Source: an uncultured Desulfobacteraceae bacterium
GTDB lineage: Bacteria; Desulfobacterota; Desulfobacteria; Desulfobacterales; ETH-SRB1
DNA: 38,263 bases
Direction: 5' to 3'
Assembly: GCA_964472445.1 (NCBI GenBank)
Contig: CAYYMU010000002.1
Span: 1-38,263, forward strand
Shown here: piece by piece, positions 6,301 to 38,256 of the stretch
Layout: each line of letters opens with the position of its first letter
Numbering within the stretch: the stretch's first letter is position 1
Position numbers and translations under genes: made by a program
The notes under the pieces: generated by a model
Databases searched by the model: none
The model's input: the letters and a program-made list of their open reading frames with translations, nothing else
Told to the model about the DNA's origin: nothing

Positions 6301-6576
6301 CTAATTATCTACCCTGTCTTTCAATTCTTTTCCAGCTTTGAAAAACGGAAGTTTTTTTGGTTTTATTACAACCTGCTCACCTGTCTTTGGATTTCTTCCA
6401 GCATATCCCTTGTATTCTTTTACAAAAAAACTGCTGAACCCGCGAATTTCCACCCTTTCTCCCCGTACCAGAGCATCCTGCATTGAACCAAAAAATATTT
6501 TAACTATCCTGGCCGCGTCTGACCTTGAAATATTAGTCTCGGCTTTAAGGCTTGAAATAATCTCCAGTTTGTTCAT
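6301..6576 (-). CDS. ihfB: HU/IHF-family DNA-bending protein, IHF beta-like
   Basis: 91 aa from ATG 6576 with a GGAGG RBS at 6582-6586. Contains RVEIRGFSSF...GRNPKTGEQV...FKAGKELKDRV. The longer ORF running to 6627 extends into a repeat element and is not credible. Confidence 0.85.
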   Translation of the reverse strand: MNKLEIISSLKAETNISRSDAARIVKIFFGSMQDALVRGERVEIRGFSSFFVKEYKGYAGRNPKTGEQVVIKPKKLPFFKAGKELKDRVDN

Positions 6577-6595
6577 GTATCCTCCTTTTTGAAAA

Positions 6596-6750
6596 GAGAC
6601 CTTTGCAAAACCTCCCCTTTTGCCCAATTACTGCGTCAGGCTCAAATTTTAAGCCTCGCAATACTCAATGTATTCCTACGTTTAAACCTGATTTAAAATT
6701 TGGTCGCCTTCCTTGAACTTGAGCAAAATTGAACATTTTTCAAAGGTCTC
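6596..6750 (-). repeat. Repeat family A, copy A1 (155-bp imperfect palindrome)
   Basis: Termini GAGACCTTTGCAAAA ... TTTTTCAAAGGTCTC. Core carries CTGCGTCAGG, GGAATACATTGAGTAT (reverse complement) and CCTTCCTTGAAC. Ends 20 nt upstream of the ihfB-like start codon. Confidence 0.85.
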
Positions 6751-6764
6751 GAAATAACTGCCAT

Positions 6765-6878
6765 TTGACGCATTCGTAAAAAGCTGCATTATACCGCTCT
6801 GCGGCACTTGAAATTAGAATAACTTTAAACAATCCGTCTTCAGTTGTGATGTAAATTAAAATTAGAAAATTGTTTGAG
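6765..6878 (-). repeat. BT module plus one arm of the B palindrome (partial B copy)
   Basis: TTGACGCATTCGTAAAAAGCTGCATTATACCGCTCTGCGGCACTTGAAATTAGAATAACTTTAAACAATCCGTCTTCAGTTGTGATGTAAATTAAAATTAGAAAATTGTTTGAG aligns to the reverse complement of 15375-15500. Reading on the plus strand gives TTGACG, a 16-nt spacer, then CATTAT. Confidence 0.8.
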
Positions 6879-6938
6879 TTGAGTTATTTGAAAGTCGTTT
6901 TATGACTGTTAAACAAAACCCCTTAAAAAGTCAAGCAG

Positions 6939-7460
6939 TTATGACAATATTTCTGGGAGCTTTTCGACACAGTCTTCACTCACATCCACTGCTGCAAACT
7001 GACCAAGAGCTTCTATGTTCACAACAACCCTGTCTTTACCTCTGTATCTCACAAAAGAGCCCATCACGCCTGTAAACGGACCATAAATCACTGCGACCCT
7101 GTCTCCTTCTTTAAATTTCGTACCCGTTAATACGGTGTTATCTCCTGCGACCATTATTTGAAGTGACTCAACGGTCTTAGATGCAACAGAAACAGCGCCC
7201 ATTTTGTTGCCGATAAAACGAACAACTCCAGCGGTTTTTAGGATTTCAAGGCGTTGATATGGATCAAGCTCTGTTTTAACGAACAGATATCCCGGGAAAA
7301 GAGGAACTCTGAGCATTACTCGTCTGTCACGGCGTTTACTTTTTACTCTGATCTTTGGCAGAAAAACTTCAAACGATTTTTTAAACAGAAGATCATTAGC
7401 AATACTTTCAAACCTGCTCTTTGTATGTAAAACATACCACTGGGGATTTTTTATCATCAT
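6939..7460 (-). CDS. NusG-family specialised paralog (RfaH/UpxY-like transcription antiterminator)
   Basis: 173 aa. NGN domain (WYVLHTKSRFE...PLFPGYLFV) plus a KOW motif (GDRVAVIYGPFTGVMGSF). Lies 12 nt downstream of lptD. Confidence 0.8.
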   Translation of the reverse strand: MMIKNPQWYVLHTKSRFESIANDLLFKKSFEVFLPKIRVKSKRRDRRVMLRVPLFPGYLFVKTELDPYQRLEILKTAGVVRFIGNKMGAVSVASKTVESLQIMVAGDNTVLTGTKFKEGDRVAVIYGPFTGVMGSFVRYRGKDRVVVNIEALGQFAAVDVSEDCVEKLPEILS

Positions 7461-12484: not shown

Positions 12485-12550
12485 TTAACATAAAAAGCCC
12501 CTCTATGCGCTTTGCATCACTGGAAACCAAAATAACTTTTGAGCAATCGG
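12485..12550 (-). repeat. BT module copy in the alaC-hom spacer
   Basis: TAAAAAGCCCCTCTATGCGCTTTGCATCACTGGAAACCAAAATAACTTTTGAGCAATCGG aligns to the reverse complement of 15431-15490. It lacks a good -35 hexamer. Confidence 0.75.
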
Positions 12551-15046: not shown

Positions 15047-15184
15047 GTTTACCCGCCTTTGGCGGCGCCGGAGGCGACCAGGGTTCATATACAAGGCGTA
15101 GTGTTTTTTCAGGACCGAAGGTATACATATAGTATGTCGAGGTTCTGAAAAAACACTACAACCCGCATGAGGCGGACAAGCACA
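15047..15184 (+). repeat. GC-rich module E plus 19-bp-stem hairpin plus F-like module
   Basis: 15047-15088 GTTTACCCGCCTTTGGCGGCGCCGGAGGCGACCAGGGTTCAT is 40/42 identical to 38152-38193. Hairpin: 15098-15116 GTAGTGTTTTTTCAGGACC pairs with 15141-15159 GGTTCTGAAAAAACACTAC. 15160-15184 AACCCGCATGAGGCGGACAAGCACAG is related to module F. Confidence 0.8.
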
Positions 15185-15199
15185 GTAGATGGGACTTTG

Positions 15200-15500
15200 A
15201 AATAAATCAACTGTAGTTTTTGCCGGTTATCGCAACAGTTCTAATTAAATTAAAACCAGAAAAAACTCAGGTATAACAAATCGTAAACAAAGAACGGGCC
15301 ATAATAAAAACATCAAGCATGCTAATGATTTAATCTTTTATTGATAACAATATATCAACAGGTTCTTTGCTAACGATTTTTAATACATTCAAACAGTTTT
15401 CTAATTTTAATTTAATCATAACTGAAGACTGATTGCTCAAAAGTTATTCTGGTTTCAAGTGCTGCAAAGTGGCATAGTGGAGCTTTTTACGACGCCATCA
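15200..15500 (+). repeat. Repeat family B, copy B1 (301 bp: about 230-bp imperfect palindrome plus BT tail)
   Basis: Manual alignment to 25957-26257 gives 14 substitutions, no indels (about 95 percent identity). The internal long inverted repeat is CAGTT.T.ATTAAATTAAAA.CAGAAAA ... TTTTCTAATTTTAATTTAATCATAACTG. Confidence 0.9.
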
Positions 15501-21403: not shown

Positions 21404-21605
21404 GAGACCTTTGCAAAGCACCCCCTTTTGCCCAAGTTATGCGTCAGGTTTAAGAATAATTTTGAGTTTTTAATTTTGAATGAAGAAAAAACCATTATTA
21501 ATTTAAAATTCAACATTTAAAATTCATAATTTTTTATGTATTCCTGTGGTTGAAACCCTTGCCTTCCTTGAACTTGGACAAAATTGAGCCTTTTTCAAAG
21601 GTCTC
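21404..21605 (-). repeat. Repeat family A, copy A2 (202 bp, AT-rich central insertion)
   Basis: Same termini (GAGACCTTTGCAAAG ... TTTTTCAAAGGTCTC) and flank-core blocks (TTTTGCCCAAGTTATGCGTCAGG ; CCTTCCTTGAACTTGGACAAAATTGA). The apical region is replaced by about 90 nt of AT-rich sequence. Confidence 0.85.
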
Positions 21606-22455: not shown

Positions 22456-22775
22456 ATCCGGGTCCAGAGGGCCCGGCTTTGGTTTGCCCCTAAAAGGGGT
22501 TGTTTTACTTAAAGCGGTACAAATTAAAAGTGCCTAAAGTGAACTAAAGTGAACTAAAGTGCCTAAAGTTATGGAGTCGCTCCTGCCCGCCATCGCGAGC
22601 CATACTCAACGATCTTCGTCCTTTTGTCGTTTCGCTCAGGCGAGGCGGGCGGGTCGCTCCGCTTATTTTATATAATTGACAGAATTCCTTAACTTTAGCT
22701 CACTTCAAACTCTTGCAGCATTTCTCCAGGCAAAGCCGGATAACTCCGACTTGGCCCTGAGGACCAGGTTTTTCA
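22456..22775 (+). repeat. Composite element D, copy D1 (GC-rich 83-nt core 22577-22659)
   Basis: The core is 76/83 identical to the reverse complement of 38027-38109. Arms are built from AAAGTGCCT/AAAGTGAACT tandem units (22527-22570) and a partly complementary GCTCACTTCAAAC side. Outer hairpins are CCGGGTCCAGAGGGCCCGG (22458-22476) and TTGGCCCTGAGGACCAGG (22751-22768). Confidence 0.85.
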
Positions 22776-22789
22776 GGGTAAAATAAAGA

Positions 22790-24208: not shown

Positions 24209-24347
24209 CCACCAAGCTTACGGAGAACACAGAGAAAATTTTTTTAAAAATCACTTTTAGTGGCCGTTCCTGCCTGTGTTACCCATAAAGGCGGACAAGT
24301 CTGTGGCTGAATGATTATTTTTTATATTCTTAGTGTGCTTTGTGGTG
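24209..24347 (-). repeat. Module F copy bracketed by an imperfect inverted repeat (asnS upstream region)
   Basis: The reverse complement of 24262-24319 (AATAATCATTCAGCCACAGACTTGTCCGCCTTTATGGGTAACACAGGCAGG) aligns to 37742-37794. Flanks are CCACCAAGCTTACGGAGAACACAGAGAA / TTCTTAGTGTGCTTTGTGGTG. Confidence 0.7.
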
Positions 24348-25828: not shown

Positions 25829-25956
25829 CTCAAACAGCTTGAAATTTTAACGCCAGGCTCAATCTGACCGGCCAAAAACTGATTATTTTCCTTACCGGGA
25901 AGCTTTAGCTTCAATCTTTTTCCAAAACTGCTCAATGTCGCTTGCAAATGATTTTT

Positions 25957-26257
25957 AAATAACTCAACTGTAGTTTTTGCCAGTTATCGCAACAGTTATG
26001 ATTAAATTAAAATCAGAAAAAACTCATGTATAACAAATCGTAAACAAAGAACAGGCCATAATAAAAACAGCAATTGTGCTAATGATTTAATCTTTTATTA
26101 ATAACAATATATCAACAGGTTCTTTGCTAACGATTTTTAATACATTCAAACAGTTTTCTAATTTTAATTTAATCATAACTGAAGACTGATTGCTCAAAAG
26201 TTATTCTGGTTTCAAGTGCTGCAAAGCGGCATAGTGGGGCTTTTTACGACGCCATCA
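25957..26257 (+). repeat. Repeat family B, copy B2
   Basis: Direct repeat of B1, 10.4 kb away in the same orientation. Its outer palindrome arms are more perfect than those of B1. Confidence 0.9.
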
Positions 26258-26292: not shown

Positions 26293-26724
26293 TTAGTTGA
26301 AGAAAAGGGTCCAAGGATTCAAGTGTTTGTTTTCTAAAGACTTTATCAGCGCCTTTAACATTCTTTCGCTTTCTGCAATGTCTTTTTTTAGTGTACCCAA
26401 TACACCTTTTTCAATTAAATCTAAATCCCCTGCTAATAATATCTGCGTTTCCAATTCACAAATAGAACCATAAGATATGTAAAGCATCCTGATGTAATCT
26501 CTGGTTGTCTTTCTTCCATATCCTTCTGCTATATTCGAAGGAATAGACACAACAGATCTTCTTATTTGTGAAGTTAGACCGTATCTTTCTTCCTTTGGAA
26601 ATTTTGCTGTTATTCTATATATTTCTAAACAGAGTTTGTATGACTTTTGCCAGACTTTCAACTCTTTGTAATTCTTTAGCCTTTTACTCGAATCCTTGAA
26701 TCCTCTGGGATCACACCTGCTCAA
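26293..26724 (-). CDS. Four-helix-bundle protein (23S rRNA intervening-sequence protein family; same fold family as DGR Avd)
   Basis: 143-aa ORF. Signature YKELKVWQKSY...FPKEERYGLTSQIRRS..SIPSNIAEGYGR. The only in-frame start is TTG 26724, which adds about 16 aa beyond the usual N-terminus, so the start is uncertain. Confidence 0.8.
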   Translation of the reverse strand: MSRCDPRGFKDSSKRLKNYKELKVWQKSYKLCLEIYRITAKFPKEERYGLTSQIRRSVVSIPSNIAEGYGRKTTRDYIRMLYISYGSICELETQILLAGDLDLIEKGVLGTLKKDIAESERMLKALIKSLENKHLNPWTLFFN

Positions 26725-26908: not shown

Positions 26909-29440
26909 ATGAATATTAAAAACTTTCAAGACATCCTGCCGCTGGTTGAACGGCCAAGCAGATATTTAGGCACGGAAATAAATACCATAAAAAAAGATAT
27001 AGACAAGGTCAGGCTGAAAATCGCCCTTGCTTTTCCAGATCTGTATGAAATAGGCACATCTCATTTCGGGCTTCAAATTCTTTATCATATCCTGAACAAA
27101 CATGACGATATAGCCGCTGAAAGGGTTTACGCTCCAGATGTTGATATGGAATCGTATTTGAGATCTTCACATCTTCCACTTGTGTCTCTGGAATCACATC
27201 ATCCTCTTAAAAAATTTGATATTATAGGTTTTAGCCTGCTTTATGAGCTTAATTATACAAACATTCTTACAATGTTAGACCTTGCGGGCATACCGTTTTA
27301 TTCTTCTAAAAGAGATGATTCCTTCCCGATTATTATAGCTGGTGGGCCATGTACCTGCAACCCTGAACCTGTGGCCGATTTTTTTGATGCCATGGTGGTT
27401 GGAGACGGTGAAAATGTAATAATGGATATATCCAGAACATGGCTTGAATGGAAAAAGGGTAACAATACTGATAAGGAGTCTTTGTTAAAGCAGTTATCCT
27501 TAATTAAAGGTCTTTATATACCAGCTTTTTTTAATTCAAGCAGCGGAACAGGCGATAAAAATTTCTTTCAGATTCCGCAGCCCATGTTTTCAAATTATAA
27601 GGTTATTAATAAAGAAATTATAACAGATATTGATACTGCACCTTTTCCAGATGCTCCGATAATACCGTTTGGCAGGCCTGTGCATGATCGTCTTCGAATG
27701 GAGATTGCACGTGGATGCACCAGGGGATGCCGATTCTGTCAGGCCGGCATGATATATAGACCAGTTCGTGAACGTTCTGTAGAAAGACTGCTTAATCTGA
27801 CCGATGCTTCATTGTCTGCAACAGGTTATGAAGACATTTCACTGTTATCACTGAGCAGTGCTGACTATGGGAACATTGTACCTCTTATGGAACAGCTCAT
27901 GTCCAGATATAAATCCGGACATGTTGCTGTTTCTTTACCCTCATTGCGTGCCGGGACTCTGACACCTGAACTTATTAATCTAATAAAAAGGGTCAGAAAA
28001 ACAGGGTTTACAATTGCGCCAGAAGCAGGAAGCCAGAGACTCAGAGATTTTATAAACAAGAACATTACTGAAAAAGAAATTGTTGATACAGTACAAGATG
28101 TGTTTGATATGGGCTGGCTGGTTATAAAACTATACTTTATGATAGGGTTGCCATCAGAAACAGATGATGATCTTCAGGCGATTGTCAGCCTTGTTAAAAA
28201 GCTTCGCAAGATTAAAGCCAAGGGGCGACACAGTCACCAGATAAATGTCAGCGTGGCGACCTTTATACCAAAGCCACACACCCCTTTTCAATGGGCACCT
28301 CAACTTTCTCTGGATGAATCAAGAGGCAAAATAGAAAAACTTAGGGCTGAGCTAAAAATGTCTGGAATTCGTTTTAAATGGCAGAATCCGCAGGTAAGCA
28401 TACTCGAAGGTGTTTTTGCGAGGGGAGACAGACAGCTTAGCGCTTTGCTGGTAGATGCGTACGAAAAAGGATGCAGGTTTGACGGGTGGAGTGAGAAGTT
28501 TCAGTATAAACTGTGGCAGCAGGCCTTGTTGGACCAAAGAATAGATGTAAATCATTATACAGGTGCAAGGGCTTTAAGTGACAGCCTGCCCTGGGATCAC
28601 ATTGATGCTGGAGTGACAAAAGAATTTTTGAAGAAAGAATTGGGAAAAGCGGAAAAAGGAGAATCTACTCAGGACTGTCGAACAGGTGAATGCAATAACT
28701 GCGGAGTTTGCGATTTTGACACCATTAAACCGGCTGTTTTTGAAGTTGACAGAAGAAAGACGGTACAGGATGTTGTTAGTTTTTTAGATAATAAAAAAGA
28801 TTTAAAGGATAATTCAGTAGAATTTTTTCCAAAAATTAAGGTTGGTTTTTCAAAAAAGGGTAAGGCAAAATATTTTGGACATTTAGAGCTTGTAAATATT
28901 TTTCTGCGCGCTCTCAGGAGGGCTGGCATACCGGTGAAGTTTACGGAAGGGTATCATCCCAAACCACGGATATCCTTTGGTGATACACTCCCTCTTGGAA
29001 TGGAAAGCCTGAACGAGTCATTATATCTGGTGATGTGCGGTAACGTTAAAACAGACCATGTAAAAGATGGCTTGAATAATAATTTACCGGAAGGTCTTTT
29101 TGTGTCAGATTGTCAACAATGTCTGACTAAAGCAGACGTTGAAACGCCAAAGTCGGCTTTATATTTTATAGAGCTTAAAGACAGTTGTTTTGACAATAAC
29201 GCAATAAACAATTTTATAAATAGACCTTCTCTTATTCAAACCAGTGTTAATCGAAAAGGCAAGGTAAAAAAAGTAGATCTTAAGGACATGGTTTTGAAAA
29301 TTGATTTAAGAAGCCCCTGTAACCTTATATTAAAGCTAAGATCGGAACCCGGCAGAACAGCAAGACCGTTTGATATTTTAAAGACAGTTTTTAGCTTTTC
29401 TGAAGATACAATAAGGCAGGCAACTGTAATAAAACAGTGA
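26909..29440 (+). CDS. Radical SAM protein, B12-binding-like N-domain fused to a DUF2344-type C-terminal domain (TIGR03960/TIGR03936-like), function unknown
   Basis: 843 aa. CxxxCxxC cluster in ARGCTRGCRFCQAG. The N-terminus ERPSRYLGTEIN is typical of this conserved fusion family. The C-terminal third has the KxGxxKYxGHLE pattern. Confidence 0.85.
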   Translation: MNIKNFQDILPLVERPSRYLGTEINTIKKDIDKVRLKIALAFPDLYEIGTSHFGLQILYHILNKHDDIAAERVYAPDVDMESYLRSSHLPLVSLESHHPLKKFDIIGFSLLYELNYTNILTMLDLAGIPFYSSKRDDSFPIIIAGGPCTCNPEPVADFFDAMVVGDGENVIMDISRTWLEWKKGNNTDKESLLKQLSLIKGLYIPAFFNSSSGTGDKNFFQIPQPMFSNYKVINKEIITDIDTAPFPDAPIIPFGRPVHDRLRMEIARGCTRGCRFCQAGMIYRPVRERSVERLLNLTDASLSATGYEDISLLSLSSADYGNIVPLMEQLMSRYKSGHVAVSLPSLRAGTLTPELINLIKRVRKTGFTIAPEAGSQRLRDFINKNITEKEIVDTVQDVFDMGWLVIKLYFMIGLPSETDDDLQAIVSLVKKLRKIKAKGRHSHQINVSVATFIPKPHTPFQWAPQLSLDESRGKIEKLRAELKMSGIRFKWQNPQVSILEGVFARGDRQLSALLVDAYEKGCRFDGWSEKFQYKLWQQALLDQRIDVNHYTGARALSDSLPWDHIDAGVTKEFLKKELGKAEKGESTQDCRTGECNNCGVCDFDTIKPAVFEVDRRKTVQDVVSFLDNKKDLKDNSVEFFPKIKVGFSKKGKAKYFGHLELVNIFLRALRRAGIPVKFTEGYHPKPRISFGDTLPLGMESLNESLYLVMCGNVKTDHVKDGLNNNLPEGLFVSDCQQCLTKADVETPKSALYFIELKDSCFDNNAINNFINRPSLIQTSVNRKGKVKKVDLKDMVLKIDLRSPCNLILKLRSEPGRTARPFDILKTVFSFSEDTIRQATVIKQ

Positions 29441-29444
29441 TTAG

Positions 29445-29585
29445 GAGGCTGTCCGAGAATGAGAAATTTTTTGCAAGGTCAAGGAAAACGAAGATTTTAA
29501 CCGCAGGAATACATTGAGTATTTTGAGGATTAAAATCTGAGACTGACGCAGAGATTGCGGGAAATAGCCATTCTCGGACAGCCTC
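29445..29585 (+). repeat. Repeat family A, copy A4 (variant closing stem)
   Basis: Core homologous to A3 (CAAGGAAAACGAAGATTTTAACCGCAGGAATACATTGAGTATTTTGAGGATTAAAATCTGAGACTGACGCAGAGATTGCGGG). It is closed by a different, perfect 17-bp inverted repeat GAGGCTGTCCGAGAATG / CATTCTCGGACAGCCTC. Confidence 0.85.
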
Positions 29586-29714
29586 TTAGTGTTTTATAAA
29601 AGGTTGCGTTAGCTTGTAAATTCTTAAAAATGCTGATTTTTTGATGCTTGACTTTATATTTGACTTGTGATTATTTTAGAAGTTTAAAAATAATTGATCA
29701 GGCATTTTTGCTGC

Positions 29715-29731
29715 GAGACCGTAGAAAAATG
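29715..29731 (+). repeat. Solo copy of a family-A terminus
   Basis: GAGACCGTAGAAAAATG, compared with GAGACCGTTGAAAAATG at 29774-29790. Confidence 0.6.
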
Positions 29732-29773
29732 TTTTCTGCTAAAAGCGGTATTAAGCTTTATAATGGATTCAGC

Positions 29774-29915
29774 GAGACCGTTGAAAAATGCTCAATTTTG
29801 TTTAAGTTCAAGGAAGGCGAGGATTTCAACCACAGGAATATATTGAATATTTCGAGGATTGAAATTTGAGCCTGACGCAGAAATTGGGCAAAAGGGGGTG
29901 TTTTGCAAAGGTCTC
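29774..29915 (+). repeat. Repeat family A, copy A3 (142 bp)
   Basis: GAGACCGTTGAAAAATG ... TGTTTTGCAAAGGTCTC. Core is CAAGGAAGGCGAGGATTTCAACCACAGGAATATATTGAATATTTCGAGGATTGAAATTTGAGCCTGACGCAGAAATTGGGC. Ends 52 nt upstream of rpmH. Confidence 0.85.
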
Positions 29916-29967
29916 TCAGCACAAGGCAGAAGGTCTCAAGAAATATATAATTTAGGGGATATGTAAC

Positions 29968-30102
29968 ATGAAAAGAACTTATCAACCGAGTAGGATAAAA
30001 CGAGCCAGAACACATGGTTTTTTGAAACGTATGTCAACGAAACAGGGAAGAAAAATCATTAACAATCGGAGGGCTAAAGGCAGAAAGCGTCTGACTGTTT
30101 AA
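29968..30102 (+). CDS. rpmH: 50S ribosomal protein L34
   Basis: 44-aa ORF below the ORF-track cutoff: [52 protein letters not shown]. Directly precedes rnpA. Confidence 0.97.
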
Positions 30103-35749: not shown

Positions 35750-36112
35750 ATGACAGAACTTTTCCCAGAAATTTCCAAAGAAGAAGAAGAATTAAGAAAA
35801 AAGTATATTTTTGATAGCATGGCCCCGCGTCGCCAAAAGCATATTCTGAAAAAAGGTTATGAAGAGTGGGATCCTTTTATAAAGCCAAAAGACCCTATAG
35901 ATCTCAGGATGGATGCCACAAAGCGAACAACACAAAAACTTGTCAGTGAATTTTTATGTGAACAAAGCGAAGAAAAATATAGCAATGACTATGGCAGAGG
36001 AGCTTTTGAGTTTTGTGTTGGAATGATTAATAAAGATGAAAAATACAGAGGAATGTTTGATTTTGCATGCTGGTATGCAGATTTGTTGAAACGGGAAGGG
36101 CACATTAAGTGA
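35750..36112 (+). CDS. Hypothetical protein
   Basis: 120-aa ORF with a GGA-rich RBS region. Sits between the YkgJ-like gene and a strong bidirectional terminator. No motif recognised. Confidence 0.55.
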   Translation: MTELFPEISKEEEELRKKYIFDSMAPRRQKHILKKGYEEWDPFIKPKDPIDLRMDATKRTTQKLVSEFLCEQSEEKYSNDYGRGAFEFCVGMINKDEKYRGMFDFACWYADLLKREGHIK

Positions 36113-36240
36113 TTTGAGACTGACACCGAAATAGCGCAAAAAGTGCTGTTTTGTAAGGGTTTCAAATTAAAGTCTTTGCGATAAAGAATGTTCGCAAAGA
36201 CTTTAATTTTTTTAACAGTTGTTGTTTTGCAAAGGTCTTT
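36111..36240 (+). repeat. Degenerate family-A-like element enclosing the bidirectional terminator
   Basis: GATTTGAGACTGACACCGAAATAGCGC resembles the A core (AATCTGAGACTGACGCAGAGATTGCGG). The 3' end GTTGTTTTGCAAAGGTCTTTC resembles the A terminus. Confidence 0.5.
36164..36214. terminator. Bidirectional intrinsic terminator between convergent genes
   Basis: Perfect 18-bp stem AAATTAAAGTCTTTGCGA / TCGCAAAGACTTTAATTT with a 10-nt loop. Flanked by an A-run on one side and a T-run on the other. Confidence 0.8.
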
Positions 36241-36258: not shown

Positions 36259-36765
36259 TCAGACGGCAGGAAGAGTAAAAACCTTGCCACACACCTTCCA
36301 CGTGTCGTCTTCTTTAATAACTTTAATTGTTTCAGTAATATGATAGGTTTTGCTTAAGCGAAAGATTCTAGCCACGGTTGCATACAGAGGATTTATGCCA
36401 TTTCTCTTTGCACAGGTTAACACAACTTCGGCCATCCCTTTCCCCAGAGGTGTTGTATGGGTTTTAATATGATAAATGGAGCTTTTCATATATTTTAGAT
36501 CAAAACCCCTTTGCTCAGCCCCATTGGCCGTTTGCAGAACATATTCATCTACAATATTAACATCATCAATTGTTTTTTGTGCGTTGCAGAGGCGTTCGTT
36601 CATAGTTGCCTTGTCAAACAGAAAATATGCCTTGGAAAACTCAACAGCAGCCTTGTGCGGTGAATCTATTCTGTCGGCATAAACAAAAACAACCTGCAAT
36701 ATAAACCCTATTATTACGATCGTTACCACCGCGGATATTATTGAACCTTTATTCTCTTGCGCCAT
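36259..36765 (-). CDS. Hypothetical membrane-anchored protein
   Basis: 168-aa ORF. One N-terminal TM helix (IISAVVTIVIIGFILQVVFVY), GGGGAAG-type RBS, convergent with the previous gene. No motif recognised. Confidence 0.55.
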   Translation of the reverse strand: MAQENKGSIISAVVTIVIIGFILQVVFVYADRIDSPHKAAVEFSKAYFLFDKATMNERLCNAQKTIDDVNIVDEYVLQTANGAEQRGFDLKYMKSSIYHIKTHTTPLGKGMAEVVLTCAKRNGINPLYATVARIFRLSKTYHITETIKVIKEDDTWKVCGKVFTLPAV

Positions 36766-37187
36766 TTGTTCTTCCCCCTTTTAGAAAATAGACAACCCAA
36801 ACAATCAGCTTGTTTTTATATTTTTAAAGCGCCTTTATAGCATAATTCATATTTTAACACAAGATATTTTCTAGCCCAAAATCCACCACCTAAAAAACCA
36901 TATGGATATTTTTATCGTTGGAATTGACGTTTTTTCAACAATTTCAGAAAAAGATATTATTGTCGTTTTATAAAAACACTACTGAGTTGTGTTTTTTTCA
37001 GCTTCATGCTTGAAAGGAAGAATGCCTTGTGCCATAACACTTACAACTTGTTGATGATAGTTTTTGTTATCTGTAATTAATCTATCACCCTGATTTCTCA
37101 GGATCAATGAGGTTTTTTACTTTTTTTGATGGTGAATCAAGGGTTGTGTAAAGGTCTCAAAAGTCTTCTTATGCTTGGAGTATTGTA

Positions 37188-37742
37188 TTGAGAATAATAG
37201 CGGGTAATTTAAAAGCAAAAAAACTGCATTCAGATAAAGGAATGGTTACAAGGCCGACTTCAGACCGATTGCGTGAATCGATTTTTGACATTTTAGCTTT
37301 TAATGTCAAAAACGCGGTTGTTCTGGATATGTTTGCAGGCACCGGGGCCATGGGTATCGAAGCACTGAGTCGCGGAGCCGAATCCGCTCTGTTTATGGAT
37401 ATTAATAACAATGCCTTGTCTGTTATAGAACGCAATATAAAAGCATGTGGGCTTGAGAACAAATCTAAAATTATAAAATGGAATATAATAAAAAATTTAA
37501 ACTGCATCAAATCTGACAAAGCCGCCTTTAATCTTATTTTTATTGATCCGCCTTATAACAAGAGCTTTCTCCAGCCTGCCCTGCAAAACTTAATAAAAGC
37601 GGGATCTGTAAAAAAAAAAGCACATCTTGTTGTTGAGCACAGCCTTTTAGAGCCATTGCCGTCAGATTTTCCTGAGTATGAACTGCAGGACCAACGAAAA
37701 TATGGAAAAACCCTTGTTTCATTTTTGAAATATATTGTATGA
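37188..37742 (+). CDS. rsmD: 16S rRNA (guanine966-N2)-methyltransferase RsmD
   Basis: 184 aa with TTG start. Motifs: RIIAG, RPTSDRLRESIF, LDMFAGTGAMGIEALSRGA, FIDPPY. Confidence 0.9.
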   Translation: MRIIAGNLKAKKLHSDKGMVTRPTSDRLRESIFDILAFNVKNAVVLDMFAGTGAMGIEALSRGAESALFMDINNNALSVIERNIKACGLENKSKIIKWNIIKNLNCIKSDKAAFNLIFIDPPYNKSFLQPALQNLIKAGSVKKKAHLVVEHSLLEPLPSDFPEYELQDQRKYGKTLVSFLKYIV

Positions 37743-37794
37743 ATAATTATTCAGACACAGACTTGTCCGCCTTTGGAGGATGAACGCAGACAGG
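37742..37794 (+). repeat. Module F copy after rsmD
   Basis: AATAATTATTCAGACACAGACTTGTCCGCCTTTGGAGGATGAACGCAGACAGG. It begins with the perfect palindrome TGAATAATTATTCA, which overlaps the rsmD stop. Confidence 0.7.
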
Positions 37795-37848: not shown

Positions 37849-37884
37849 ATTTTTGCCAGACCTGCAAATCTCTATATGTTTTTA

Positions 37885-38256
37885 TTGTGTCCTGAAAAAC
37901 CTGGTCCTTTGGGCCATGTCAGAGATAGATGGCTTTGCCTTGGAGTTTTGTGTTTAAAAAAGGAACGTCGAACATCGAACGTCGAATTAAGGTACGCCTT
38001 CGGCGTTTCAATTTTATTAAAAAAATGAGCGACCCGCCCGCCTCGCCTGAGCGAGATAACAAAAGAACGAAGAGCATTGAGTATGTCTCGCGATGGCGGG
38101 CAGGAGCGATATCCACATTCAATGTTCTATGTTGAGCGTTCGATGTTCGATGTTTACCCGCCTTCGGCGGCGCCAGAGGCGACCAGGGTTCATCTTTTTC
38201 ATGCAAAGCAAATCCCCTCTGGGGATAGCCAAAGCCTGGTCCTCTGGGCCAGGATT
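37885..38256 (-). repeat. Composite element D, copy D2 (core 38027-38109)
   Basis: Same core and same outer flanks (CCTGAAAAACCTGGTCCTTTGGGCCA..GGCTTTGCCTTGGAG ; CCAAAGCCTGGTCCTCTGGGCCAGG). The arms are built from unrelated heptamer repeats GAACGTC/GAACATC (37964-37987) and their complement (38137-38154). An E module is inserted at 38152-38193. Confidence 0.85.

Follow-up and report, generated by a model that had tools for sequence, protein, structure and literature searches.

Copies of the repeat in the window and in other genomes

The window analysed here is a stretch of 38,263 nucleotides from an uncultured Desulfobacteraceae bacterium (assembly GCA_964472445.1, contig CAYYMU010000002.1, positions 1 to 38,263). 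It is a housekeeping chromosomal region with metG, holB, genes for HU and a NusG-like protein, lptD, dnaN, gyrB, asnS/aspS-type and DegP-type genes, a radical-SAM protein gene, rpmH, rnpA, yidC, jag and mnmE. [quoted passage not shown] We conclude, at a probability of roughly 85%, that these repeats are a 142-bp non-autonomous transposon, that is a MITE, of IS5-family lineage, which has propagated through the intergenic DNA of Desulfobacterales. Every copy in the window is intergenic, and no transposase gene was found in the window.

A profile hidden Markov model was built from three window copies and nhmmer was run with it on the window and on the collected loci described below. The three copies that had been placed at 6596-6750, 29445-29585 and 29774-29915 proved to be full length. 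The copy at 29774..29915 on the forward strand (142 nt, nhmmer 146 bits) belongs to the main subfamily, T1, and ends 53 nt upstream of the start codon of rpmH (Pfam Ribosomal_L34). As read from the sequence, it is bordered by TCAGC on the left (29769..29773) and on the right (29916..29920), and counts among the perfect target-site duplications (TSDs). The copy at 29445..29585 (forward strand, 141 nt) begins 5 nt past the stop codon of the radical-SAM gene, carries the termini GAGGCTGTCCGAGAATG/CATTCTCGGACAGCCTC of a second subfamily, T2, and has TTAG on either side (29441-29444 and 29586-29589). The flanking direct repeats of these two copies had been overlooked, as had a solo terminus at 29715-29731. 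The copy at 6596..6750 on the reverse strand (T1, 155 nt) has a 13-nt insertion in its 5′ arm that is shared by every contig of the same population. It lies 19 nt upstream of the start of the HU gene and is co-oriented with it (the HU and NusG-like neighbours were assigned by Pfam), and its flanks, ATTTC and TTTTC, match at 4/5 positions.

The closing helices are as had been claimed, GAGACC...GGTCTC in the common form and a perfect 17-bp pairing of GAGGCTGTCCGAGAATG with CATTCTCGGACAGCCTC in the 29445 copy. The second helix had, however, been called unrelated to the common one, whereas the two are the same at 11/17 positions and the 29445-type termini are those of a subfamily found also in L021, L032 and L103 (L-numbers label the collected loci or contigs). 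Also, the three sequence blocks said to be shared by all copies are broadly present, except that the 29445 copy has the variants CAAGGAAAACGA and ACTGACGCAG and that the 21404 copy has CAAGGAAGGCAA and is without most of GGAATAYATTGARTAT.

This 21404..21605 copy (T1, reverse strand, 202 nt) was recovered by nhmmer in two halves, separated at the apex by some 85 nt of AT-rich DNA that replace the apical hairpin together with the inner helix's 3′ half. The original prediction recognised this replacement, but its statement that both helices are kept does not hold, as the 3′ partner of the inner helix is lost. The neighbours of the copy are gyrB and a thymidylate-synthase-like gene; it runs antisense to each of them and is without a clean 5-bp duplication (ACATAT versus ACAGAT). 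Of the degenerate copy proposed at 36111-36240, only a right-half fragment is found at 36112..36162 (forward strand, model positions 91-141, nhmmer E = 1e-4), which begins at the stop codon of the open reading frame (ORF) 35750-36112. A solo terminus, AAGACCTTTGCAAAACA, lies at 36223..36239 on the reverse strand, downstream of a perfect 18-bp hairpin at 36164-36209. Two more solo termini were read from the sequence: GAGACCGTAGAAAAATG at 29715..29731 on the forward strand, with no core after it, and the T1-like GAGACCTTTACACAACC at 37142..37158 on the reverse strand, followed by sequence unrelated to the core. The solo termini at 29715 and 37142 are either remnants or the ends of other elements that share the same transposase and termini.

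Relatives were gathered from species-representative genomes by a scan with a pattern located in the core of the element. The scan matched at least 115 loci from at least 70 assemblies (counted by accession prefix), and nhmmer gave 142 non-overlapping copies in 116 sequences, i.e. the matches listed and the window. Among the matches listed, the hosts are nearly all metagenome-assembled genomes of Desulfobacterales, Desulfobacteraceae, Syntrophobacterales and Thermodesulfobacteriota, and the named ones include Eth-SRB1, Ca. Desulfaltia, Ca. Desulfatibia and Ca. Desulfacyla. The copies in L013, L049, L064 and L089 come from bins labelled Methanosarcinales archaeon, Bacteroidales, Anaerolineales and Bacteroidota, and represent either mis-binned Desulfobacterales contigs or horizontal spread. 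The element is AT-rich and 141-204 nt long. No Rfam family matched it: Rfam 15 at gathering thresholds gave only a tRNA in the whole window, and with E up to 10 only chance snoRNA and miRNA matches on 29400-29970. A distant blastn search of PLSDB plasmids with the element gave no match, and our literature search found no paper on a MITE in Desulfobacterales. To all appearance this family has not been described before, nor have the range of its hosts and its division into subfamilies; its kind is known from bacterial MITEs with long-hairpin transcripts.

Termini, target-site duplications and a candidate transposase

The inverted repeats of T1 read GAGACCTTTG(A/C)AAAATG. Of the 76 copies that were typed, 57 end in GAGACCTTTGAAAAATG ... 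CGTTTTGCAAAGGTCTC and the remainder carry three other matched terminus pairs. Among 66 full-length copies with flanks, a 5-bp duplication was perfect in 32 and had one mismatch in 14, as against 0.5% and 2.7% when flanks were paired across different copies, and at lengths other than 5 bp there were almost no perfect duplications. The duplicated target sequences are variable with a mild A...T preference. When the whole window was compared with the 115 loci by BLAST, the element alone matched (85-93% identity) and the flanks never did. The genes that flank the window copies were not found beside copies in the other genomes examined (at least 70), nor did we find orthologous insertion sites in other genomes; homologues of p36259 (in L017) and of HU (in L007) are near copies, yet the positions differ. 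Truncated copies and solo ends occur in the family, and the ORFs across the element are only short ones or antisense read-throughs. The TSDs, the exact agreement of the termini with those of a known insertion sequence (IS, see below) and the unshared insertion sites together make the element a transposase-mobilised MITE and not a free-standing RNA gene.

The original prediction, that of an immobile element representing either a family of free-standing non-coding RNA genes or a riboswitch-like leader, is hardly credible in this light and is excluded as an exclusive reading. It would account for the covariation, conserved loops and strong folds described in the next section, and for the fact that the copies at 29774 and 6596 sit closely upstream of rpmH and of the HU gene, respectively, and share their orientation. 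But it leaves unexplained the TSDs, the insertion-sequence termini, the truncated copies and solo ends, and the lack of conserved neighbours across at least 70 genomes. Copies are moreover present in both orientations and between convergent genes, and the element carries no promoter or terminator (promoter-like and terminator-like matches near the window copies were not above shuffles). It may be noted that identical termini with TSDs had been named beforehand as the result that would speak for a MITE, and this result was found.

The terminus pairs divide the copies into subfamilies that differ in the length of the duplication. T1, with the terminus GAGACCTTTGAAAAATG, has a 5-bp TSD (57 copies, 32 perfect); T1b, with GAG(G/C)CAGTTTCAAAATG, has a 4-bp TSD (9 copies, 4 perfect, and none at 5 bp); T2, with GAGGCTGTCCGAGAATG as in the 29445 copy, has the 4-bp TSD TTAG/CTAG (4 copies, 2 perfect); and T3, with TGTCCATCCAGAAATG, has an 8-bp TSD in the three clearest of its 6 copies. 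For T3 the 8-bp flanks match at 8/8 positions in L091 (CTAACCAG), 7/8 in L099 and 6/8 in L031. In these copies (L091:2936-3067, L099:1463-1597 and L031:2377-2509) the flanks start with CTA and end with TAG or CAG, a sequence pattern that suggests a different transposase with a semi-palindromic target. That the termini diverged along with the TSD length (5, 4 and 8 bp) would be explained by mobilisation through different, related transposases.

A full-text literature search with the terminal sequence provided the link to a known transposon. The terminal inverted repeats (TIRs) of ISNme1, an IS5-family element of Neisseria meningitidis, are GAGACCTTTGCAAAA/TTTTGCAAAGGTCTC (Klein et al. 2015, PMC4596501 Table 2), and ISPg1/4/9 and the Porphyromonas gingivalis MITEs BrickBuilt and MITEPgRS have near-identical ones (PMC4596501). 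The termini of our element match the published ISNme1 TIRs at 15/15 nt, i.e. the 57 typed copies that end in GAGACCTTTGAAAAATG...TTTTGCAAAGGTCTC have the termini of an IS5-family IS. In viral and metagenome contigs we found 1.22-kb elements with the same termini, which encode a transposase of 335-337 aa with DUF772 and DDE_Tnp_1 domains. Among 63 full-length elements of about 1.2 kb with both flanks, 25 have a perfect 5-bp TSD and none has a perfect one at 3, 4, 6, 7 or 8 bp. The same termini also bound unrelated MITEs in L226 (142 bp) and L153 (181 bp), with 5-bp TSDs and different interiors; T1 termini with unrelated interiors are further seen in L069, L038 and at window position 37142. On this comparison, the MITE would be moved by an IS5-family DDE transposase encoded elsewhere, which would recognise the 15-17-bp TIRs GAGACCTTTG(A/C)AAAATG and cut the target in a staggered manner so as to leave a 5-bp duplication, and the element would have spread in this way through the intergenic DNA of Desulfobacterales and related Thermodesulfobacteriota.

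Some candidates for the autonomous partner were rejected. TIR pairs 250-5000 bp apart in L002, L003 and L069 are chance matches or other short repeats, and the TIR-bounded elements of the viral contigs L194 and L210 lie inside long phage genes, which makes them chance matches. A looser TIR-pair search requiring a duplication found no partner element in the 748 kb of Desulfobacterales DNA examined.

At L016:6834-6869 there is a 36-bp element that consists of the two terminal repeats alone (GAGACCTTTGAAAAATGAGCGTTTTGCAAAGGTCTC) with the TSD GACCA, either as the minimal unit that can be mobilised or as the product of an internal deletion after insertion. The stretch L119:2300-2710, on a contig from the same population, is identical to window 6560-6960 from the HU gene through the MITE and is then followed by unrelated upstream DNA, the divergence starting exactly at the left terminus of the MITE. 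Either copies have recombined at this junction or the assembly is chimeric at the repeat. Several further contigs also end at the MITE.

Hairpin, covariation and the conserved core

The entire 142-nt element forms one imperfect hairpin of 55 pairs. In an alignment of 54 copies, 95.1% of the cells form standard pairs and 29/55 pairs have changed on both sides, in 122 cells, with the caveat that the aligned copies share descent and that the consensus supplied the structure tested. None of 500 column shuffles reached any of the five pairing and covariation measures, and sliding the 3′ partners by 1-3 columns lowered the pairing to 28-54%, so that the covariation is well above both controls. It is found in the sub-terminal stem (31:125, AU 38 / GC 11; 35:121, UA 36 / AU 7 / CG 6), in helix 2 (44:111, GC 35 / AU 8 / GU 7), in the inner helix (67:101, UA 36 / CG 12 / UG 5; 62:106, AU 45 / GC 6) and in the apical hairpin (81:87, CG 41 / UA 12). 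The compensatory changes noted earlier in the inner helix of the window copies therefore hold across the 54 aligned copies. Covariation of the termini alone could reflect the fitting of both ends to one transposase; it is, however, also present outside the termini.

The two strands are not equivalent in this structure. G.U pairs occupy 321 cells of the alignment and A.C only 39; 22 pair positions have G.U in at least 2 sequences and 7 have A.C; and the consensus contains six G.U pairs and zero A.C. This excess of G.U over A.C means that one strand folds far better than the other. For the consensus, the predicted RNA fold of the sense strand has -61.4 kcal/mol and that of the antisense strand -37.7 kcal/mol. 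For the 29774 copy the forward strand gives -55.5 kcal/mol (z = -7.7 against dinucleotide shuffles) and the opposite strand -27.7, and for the 29445 copy the values are -61.4 kcal/mol (z = -10.6) and -50.1. The structural side of the original prediction therefore stands: the covariation and the better conservation of the interior than of the termini were rightly recognised, and the pairing is strand-specific. Its sole interpretive error was to treat the RNA and the MITE as alternatives: the covariation is real, yet compatible with a MITE, and the two readings are not exclusive.

Compensatory changes can also arise without selection, when template switching or intramolecular repair copies changes from one arm of a quasipalindrome to the other. 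Long inverted repeats are hot spots of templated mutation, and many of the double changes are common to whole subfamilies, so that few events would suffice. We nevertheless regard such correction as a very improbable source of the pattern. It would yield perfect Watson-Crick pairs, erasing G.T and A.C mismatches alike, and leaves unexplained the consensus G.U pairs without any A.C, the 321:39 asymmetry and the stable asymmetric internal loops, and the states at 67:101 (UA 36, UG 5, CG 12) and 44:111 (GC 35, GU 7, AU 8) hint at G.U intermediates.

The core is more conserved than the ends. Between the T1 and T2 consensus sequences the outer 32 + 32 nt are 56% and the inner 78 nt 91% identical, and between T1 and T3 the values are 52% and 88%; it may be noted that 25/78 inner positions were fixed by the search pattern, and without them the inner identity is about 87% (T2) and 83% (T3). 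Very divergent copies found by nhmmer only (about 60-70% identical overall) still retain CAAGGA(A/G)G, (C)TGACGC and the apical hairpin. The 5′ block at consensus 37-44 (29810-29817 in the 29774 copy) is AAGGAAGG, or AAGGAGG in divergent copies. It is Shine-Dalgarno-like on the sense strand and reads as the anti-Shine-Dalgarno CCUCCUU on the antisense strand, with no suitably spaced start codon. Inspection by eye for a sigma-54 promoter, for an IHF site at the apex, for a hammerhead-like core (CUGA...GAAA) and for a kink-turn showed nothing that agrees with the consensus of the motif concerned.

Longer copies have gained small modules in their arms, and some of these recur. A module of 23-25 nt, GCACTTTAGTGAAGCTTTAGCGC, is recurrently inserted after consensus position 107 (L069:7780-7945, L034:2647-2850, L089:425-598, L023:6002-6187 and L009:950-1137), and a roughly complementary module follows position 51-53 in L009 and L023. 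In other long copies the 5′ arm holds small hairpins that are complete in themselves. Growth of the family proceeds by the addition of modules.

Changes private to single copies give a different picture from that of the subfamilies. Private one-sided transitions away from a Watson-Crick majority led to G.U in 14 cases and to A.C in 12. The number of private changes per site (0.27-0.74) is similar in termini, stems and the conserved 5′ block, the last having 0.53 per site, equal to the termini. From this pattern the resident copies appear to decay neutrally, although the numbers are small and give an indication, not proof. The pairing bias and block conservation are then indicated to be properties of the lineages that founded subfamilies and not of each insertion, and a constraint at this level agrees with a mobile element under selection for propagation or tolerance, and not with a set of RNA genes of which each is kept by its host.

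An alternative that we regard as unlikely, though not negligible, is that the core itself is a functional structured RNA (cis-regulatory, protein-binding or needed for mobilisation) and the TIRs its mere vehicle. On this account the core of about 80 nt would be a selected strand-specific module, as RNA or possibly single-stranded DNA, with asymmetric conserved internal loops (the Shine-Dalgarno-like AAGGAGG block and the CUGACGCAG block) and a conserved apical hairpin, and it would have been carried by at least three terminus and transposase systems with 5-, 4- and 8-bp TSDs. Selection on the core explains why it persisted through three sets of termini, with 88-91% identity between subfamilies against 52-56% in the outer arms, and why the two sequence blocks and the apical hairpin are kept in copies only about 60-70% identical. 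Also, the internal loops are asymmetric and hence not mirror-image transposase sites (tandem G.A pairs are possible in the consensus fold), the G.U pairs are strand-specific, and there is a roughly 2:1 preference for the sense orientation. Yet the private mutations, undepleted in the 5′ block (0.53 per site) and without preference for G.U (14 versus 12), give no visible sign of purifying selection on individual copies. The copies are tied neither to any class of genes nor to a set spacing from them, one third of those between tandem genes are antisense, Rfam gave no match, and 25 of the 78 inner positions were set by the search pattern. If the account were true, transposon ends would be interchangeable and the core, for instance, a mobile RNA-processing or protein-binding signal, either needed for spread or repeatedly co-opted by hosts.

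The fold might instead act at the DNA level, a single-stranded or cruciform strand bringing the termini together for the transposase with G.T wobbles tolerated; we consider this rather improbable. A 142-bp duplex is about one persistence length, which makes the synapsis of its ends by looping hard, and with DNA energy parameters also the sense strand of the consensus folds better (-29.7 versus -22.4 kcal/mol). A constraint on propagating lineages rather than on resident copies is what one expects if the fold is needed for transposition. However, the strand asymmetry is much smaller with DNA than with RNA energies, the 36-bp element of termini only has a TSD, and the unrelated 142- and 181-bp MITEs with the same termini have other interiors. 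IS5-family DDE transposases act on double-stranded ends with staggered target cuts, and we know of no hairpin requirement for them.

For the MITE that we favour, the hairpin may be explained through transcription. Copies would be co-transcribed with their neighbours, and the sense transcript is modelled to fold into a long compact hairpin. Lineages that keep the fold may be better tolerated in transcribed intergenic DNA, or better propagated, and so would found the successful subfamilies, after which individual insertions would decay neutrally. Bacterial MITEs generally yield stable stem-loop transcripts; RNase III cleaves those of Correia elements, and RNase E decay is influenced by ERIC (PMC10969869, PMC3184786). 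By analogy, effects on neighbouring mRNAs through RNase III or RNase E processing or through stabilisation are likely. The distances to the upstream stop codon and to the downstream start codon are both about 100 nt, with no preference for a 5′ or 3′ position. The antisense strand is an open reading frame, with ORFs of 85-137 aa running through copies in the window (e.g. 29758-30015 on the reverse strand) and in L061, L016, L064, L033, L091 and L019, which gene callers may report as hypothetical proteins.

Some observations weigh against a MITE moved by an IS5-family transposase and shaped in this way. The 748 kb of Desulfobacterales DNA examined gave no TIR-bounded IS of 0.7-2.5 kb and, in tblastn with an IS5-family transposase, only a weak fragment in L089, and the partner transposase in Desulfobacterales is for this reason inferred from other taxa. 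No empty site or presence-absence polymorphism was seen either, as all the contigs of the same population, which were the only ones with identical HU and RnpA proteins, carry the insertions (an exact-protein look-up for L34 gave no match). A MITE needs its termini only, so that a core that outlasts them and near-invariant loop blocks are not explained by tolerance alone, while the location of the search pattern in the core inflates its apparent conservation. Lastly, the orientation bias between tandem genes depends on a crude ORF caller: it is 35-36 sense-co-oriented against 17-18 opposed copies (p = 0.01-0.03), and when only ORFs of 200 aa or more are used it weakens to 27 against 17 and is no longer significant.

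Known repeat families and other repeats in the window

Among the closest known systems are the ISNme1-type IS5-family elements and the MITEs attributed to them, the ATR repeats of N. meningitidis. The TIRs are identical (GAGACCTTTGCAAAA/TTTTGCAAAGGTCTC), and the 5-bp TSD agrees with that of the 1.22-kb elements and of the MITEs in L153 and L226. The interior is unrelated, however, the hosts are Desulfobacterales and not Neisseria, no partner IS accompanies our element in the DNA examined, and in the Desulfobacterales some subfamilies have diverged termini and TSDs of 4 or 8 bp. BrickBuilt, MITEPgRS and MITE464 of P. gingivalis (with ISPg1, ISPg4 and ISPg9 of the IS5 family) have internal tandem repeats and are restricted to the species, whereas the Desulfobacterales element consists of one hairpin of 142 nt and occurs in at least 70 species-level genomes.

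ERIC is alike in being an imperfect palindrome of about 127 bp and a transcribed intergenic MITE with termini and duplications, and it is co-transcribed with orientation-dependent effects on mRNA decay (PMC3184786, PMC10969869). It differs in that a TA motif flanks it, whereas our element has varied 5-bp TSDs, and there is no sequence similarity and a different parent family. Correia elements (NEMIS/CREE) are likewise MITEs of 100-160 bp whose transcripts fold through the terminal repeats and are cut by RNase III, their functional internal motifs being an IHF site and promoters (PMC10969869, PMC3184786). They have other termini and a TA target, and an IHF site or promoter is not demonstrable in the Desulfobacterales element. 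REP/REPIN sequences (RAYT, IS200/IS605-type) and integron attC sites function through a strand-specific single-stranded hairpin, with structure conserved over sequence. They have no TSD and no DDE-type TIRs, both of which our element has; also, REP/REPIN are short GC-rich palindromes and our element is 142 nt long and AT-rich. A strand-specific hairpin over the whole length and a core conserved over the termini are unusual for a MITE, and the element is otherwise ordinary in kind.

The family matters in several respects. At least 70 genomes of Desulfobacterales and Thermodesulfobacteriota, including those of partner bacteria of alkane-oxidising archaea (Eth-SRB1, Ca. Desulfaltia), carry an undescribed repeat that breaks assemblies, yields spurious antisense ORFs and adjoins core genes (rpmH, the HU gene, gyrB). 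For motif discovery, it shows that a mobile element can give strong covariation together with G.U asymmetry, and that covariation alone is no proof of an RNA gene. For transposon biology, it lends itself well to the question of why a full-length strand-specific hairpin persists in some MITEs and why their core is conserved more than the termini. ERIC and Correia elements raise this question too, and the subfamilies with their three TSD lengths offer natural contrasts.

The window holds repeats of other kinds as well. Between the MITE fragment at 36112-36162 and the solo terminus at 36223-36239, and between the convergent ORFs 35750-36112 (forward) and 36259-36765 (reverse), there is a perfect 18-bp inverted repeat at 36164-36209 (AAATTAAAGTCTTTGCGA ... 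TCGCAAAGACTTTAATTT) followed by a T run, which from its sequence looks like a bidirectional terminator amid MITE debris. A direct repeat of 300 nt, 95% identical, lies at 15193-15492 and 25950-26249 and contains 28-nt inverted repeats (25993-26020 / 26154-26181, also 15397-15424). It is possibly another MITE, of a second, unrelated family; a PF05635 gene (23S rRNA-intervening-sequence protein) at 26293-26724 on the reverse strand adjoins its 25950-26249 copy. A third family with the core AAAGTTATTCTGGTTTCAAGTGCYGCAAAG occurs in both orientations at 90-128, 6794-6840, 12508-12548, 15440-15478 and 26197-26235, and one of its copies directly adjoins the 6596 MITE copy. Other intergenic repeat pairs of 33-83 nt, 82-95% alike, are 22577-22659 / 38027-38109, 22728-22787 / 37881-37940, 15047-15088 / 38152-38193 and 24287-24319 / 37742-37774. 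Several repeat families thus crowd the intergenic space of the source genome.

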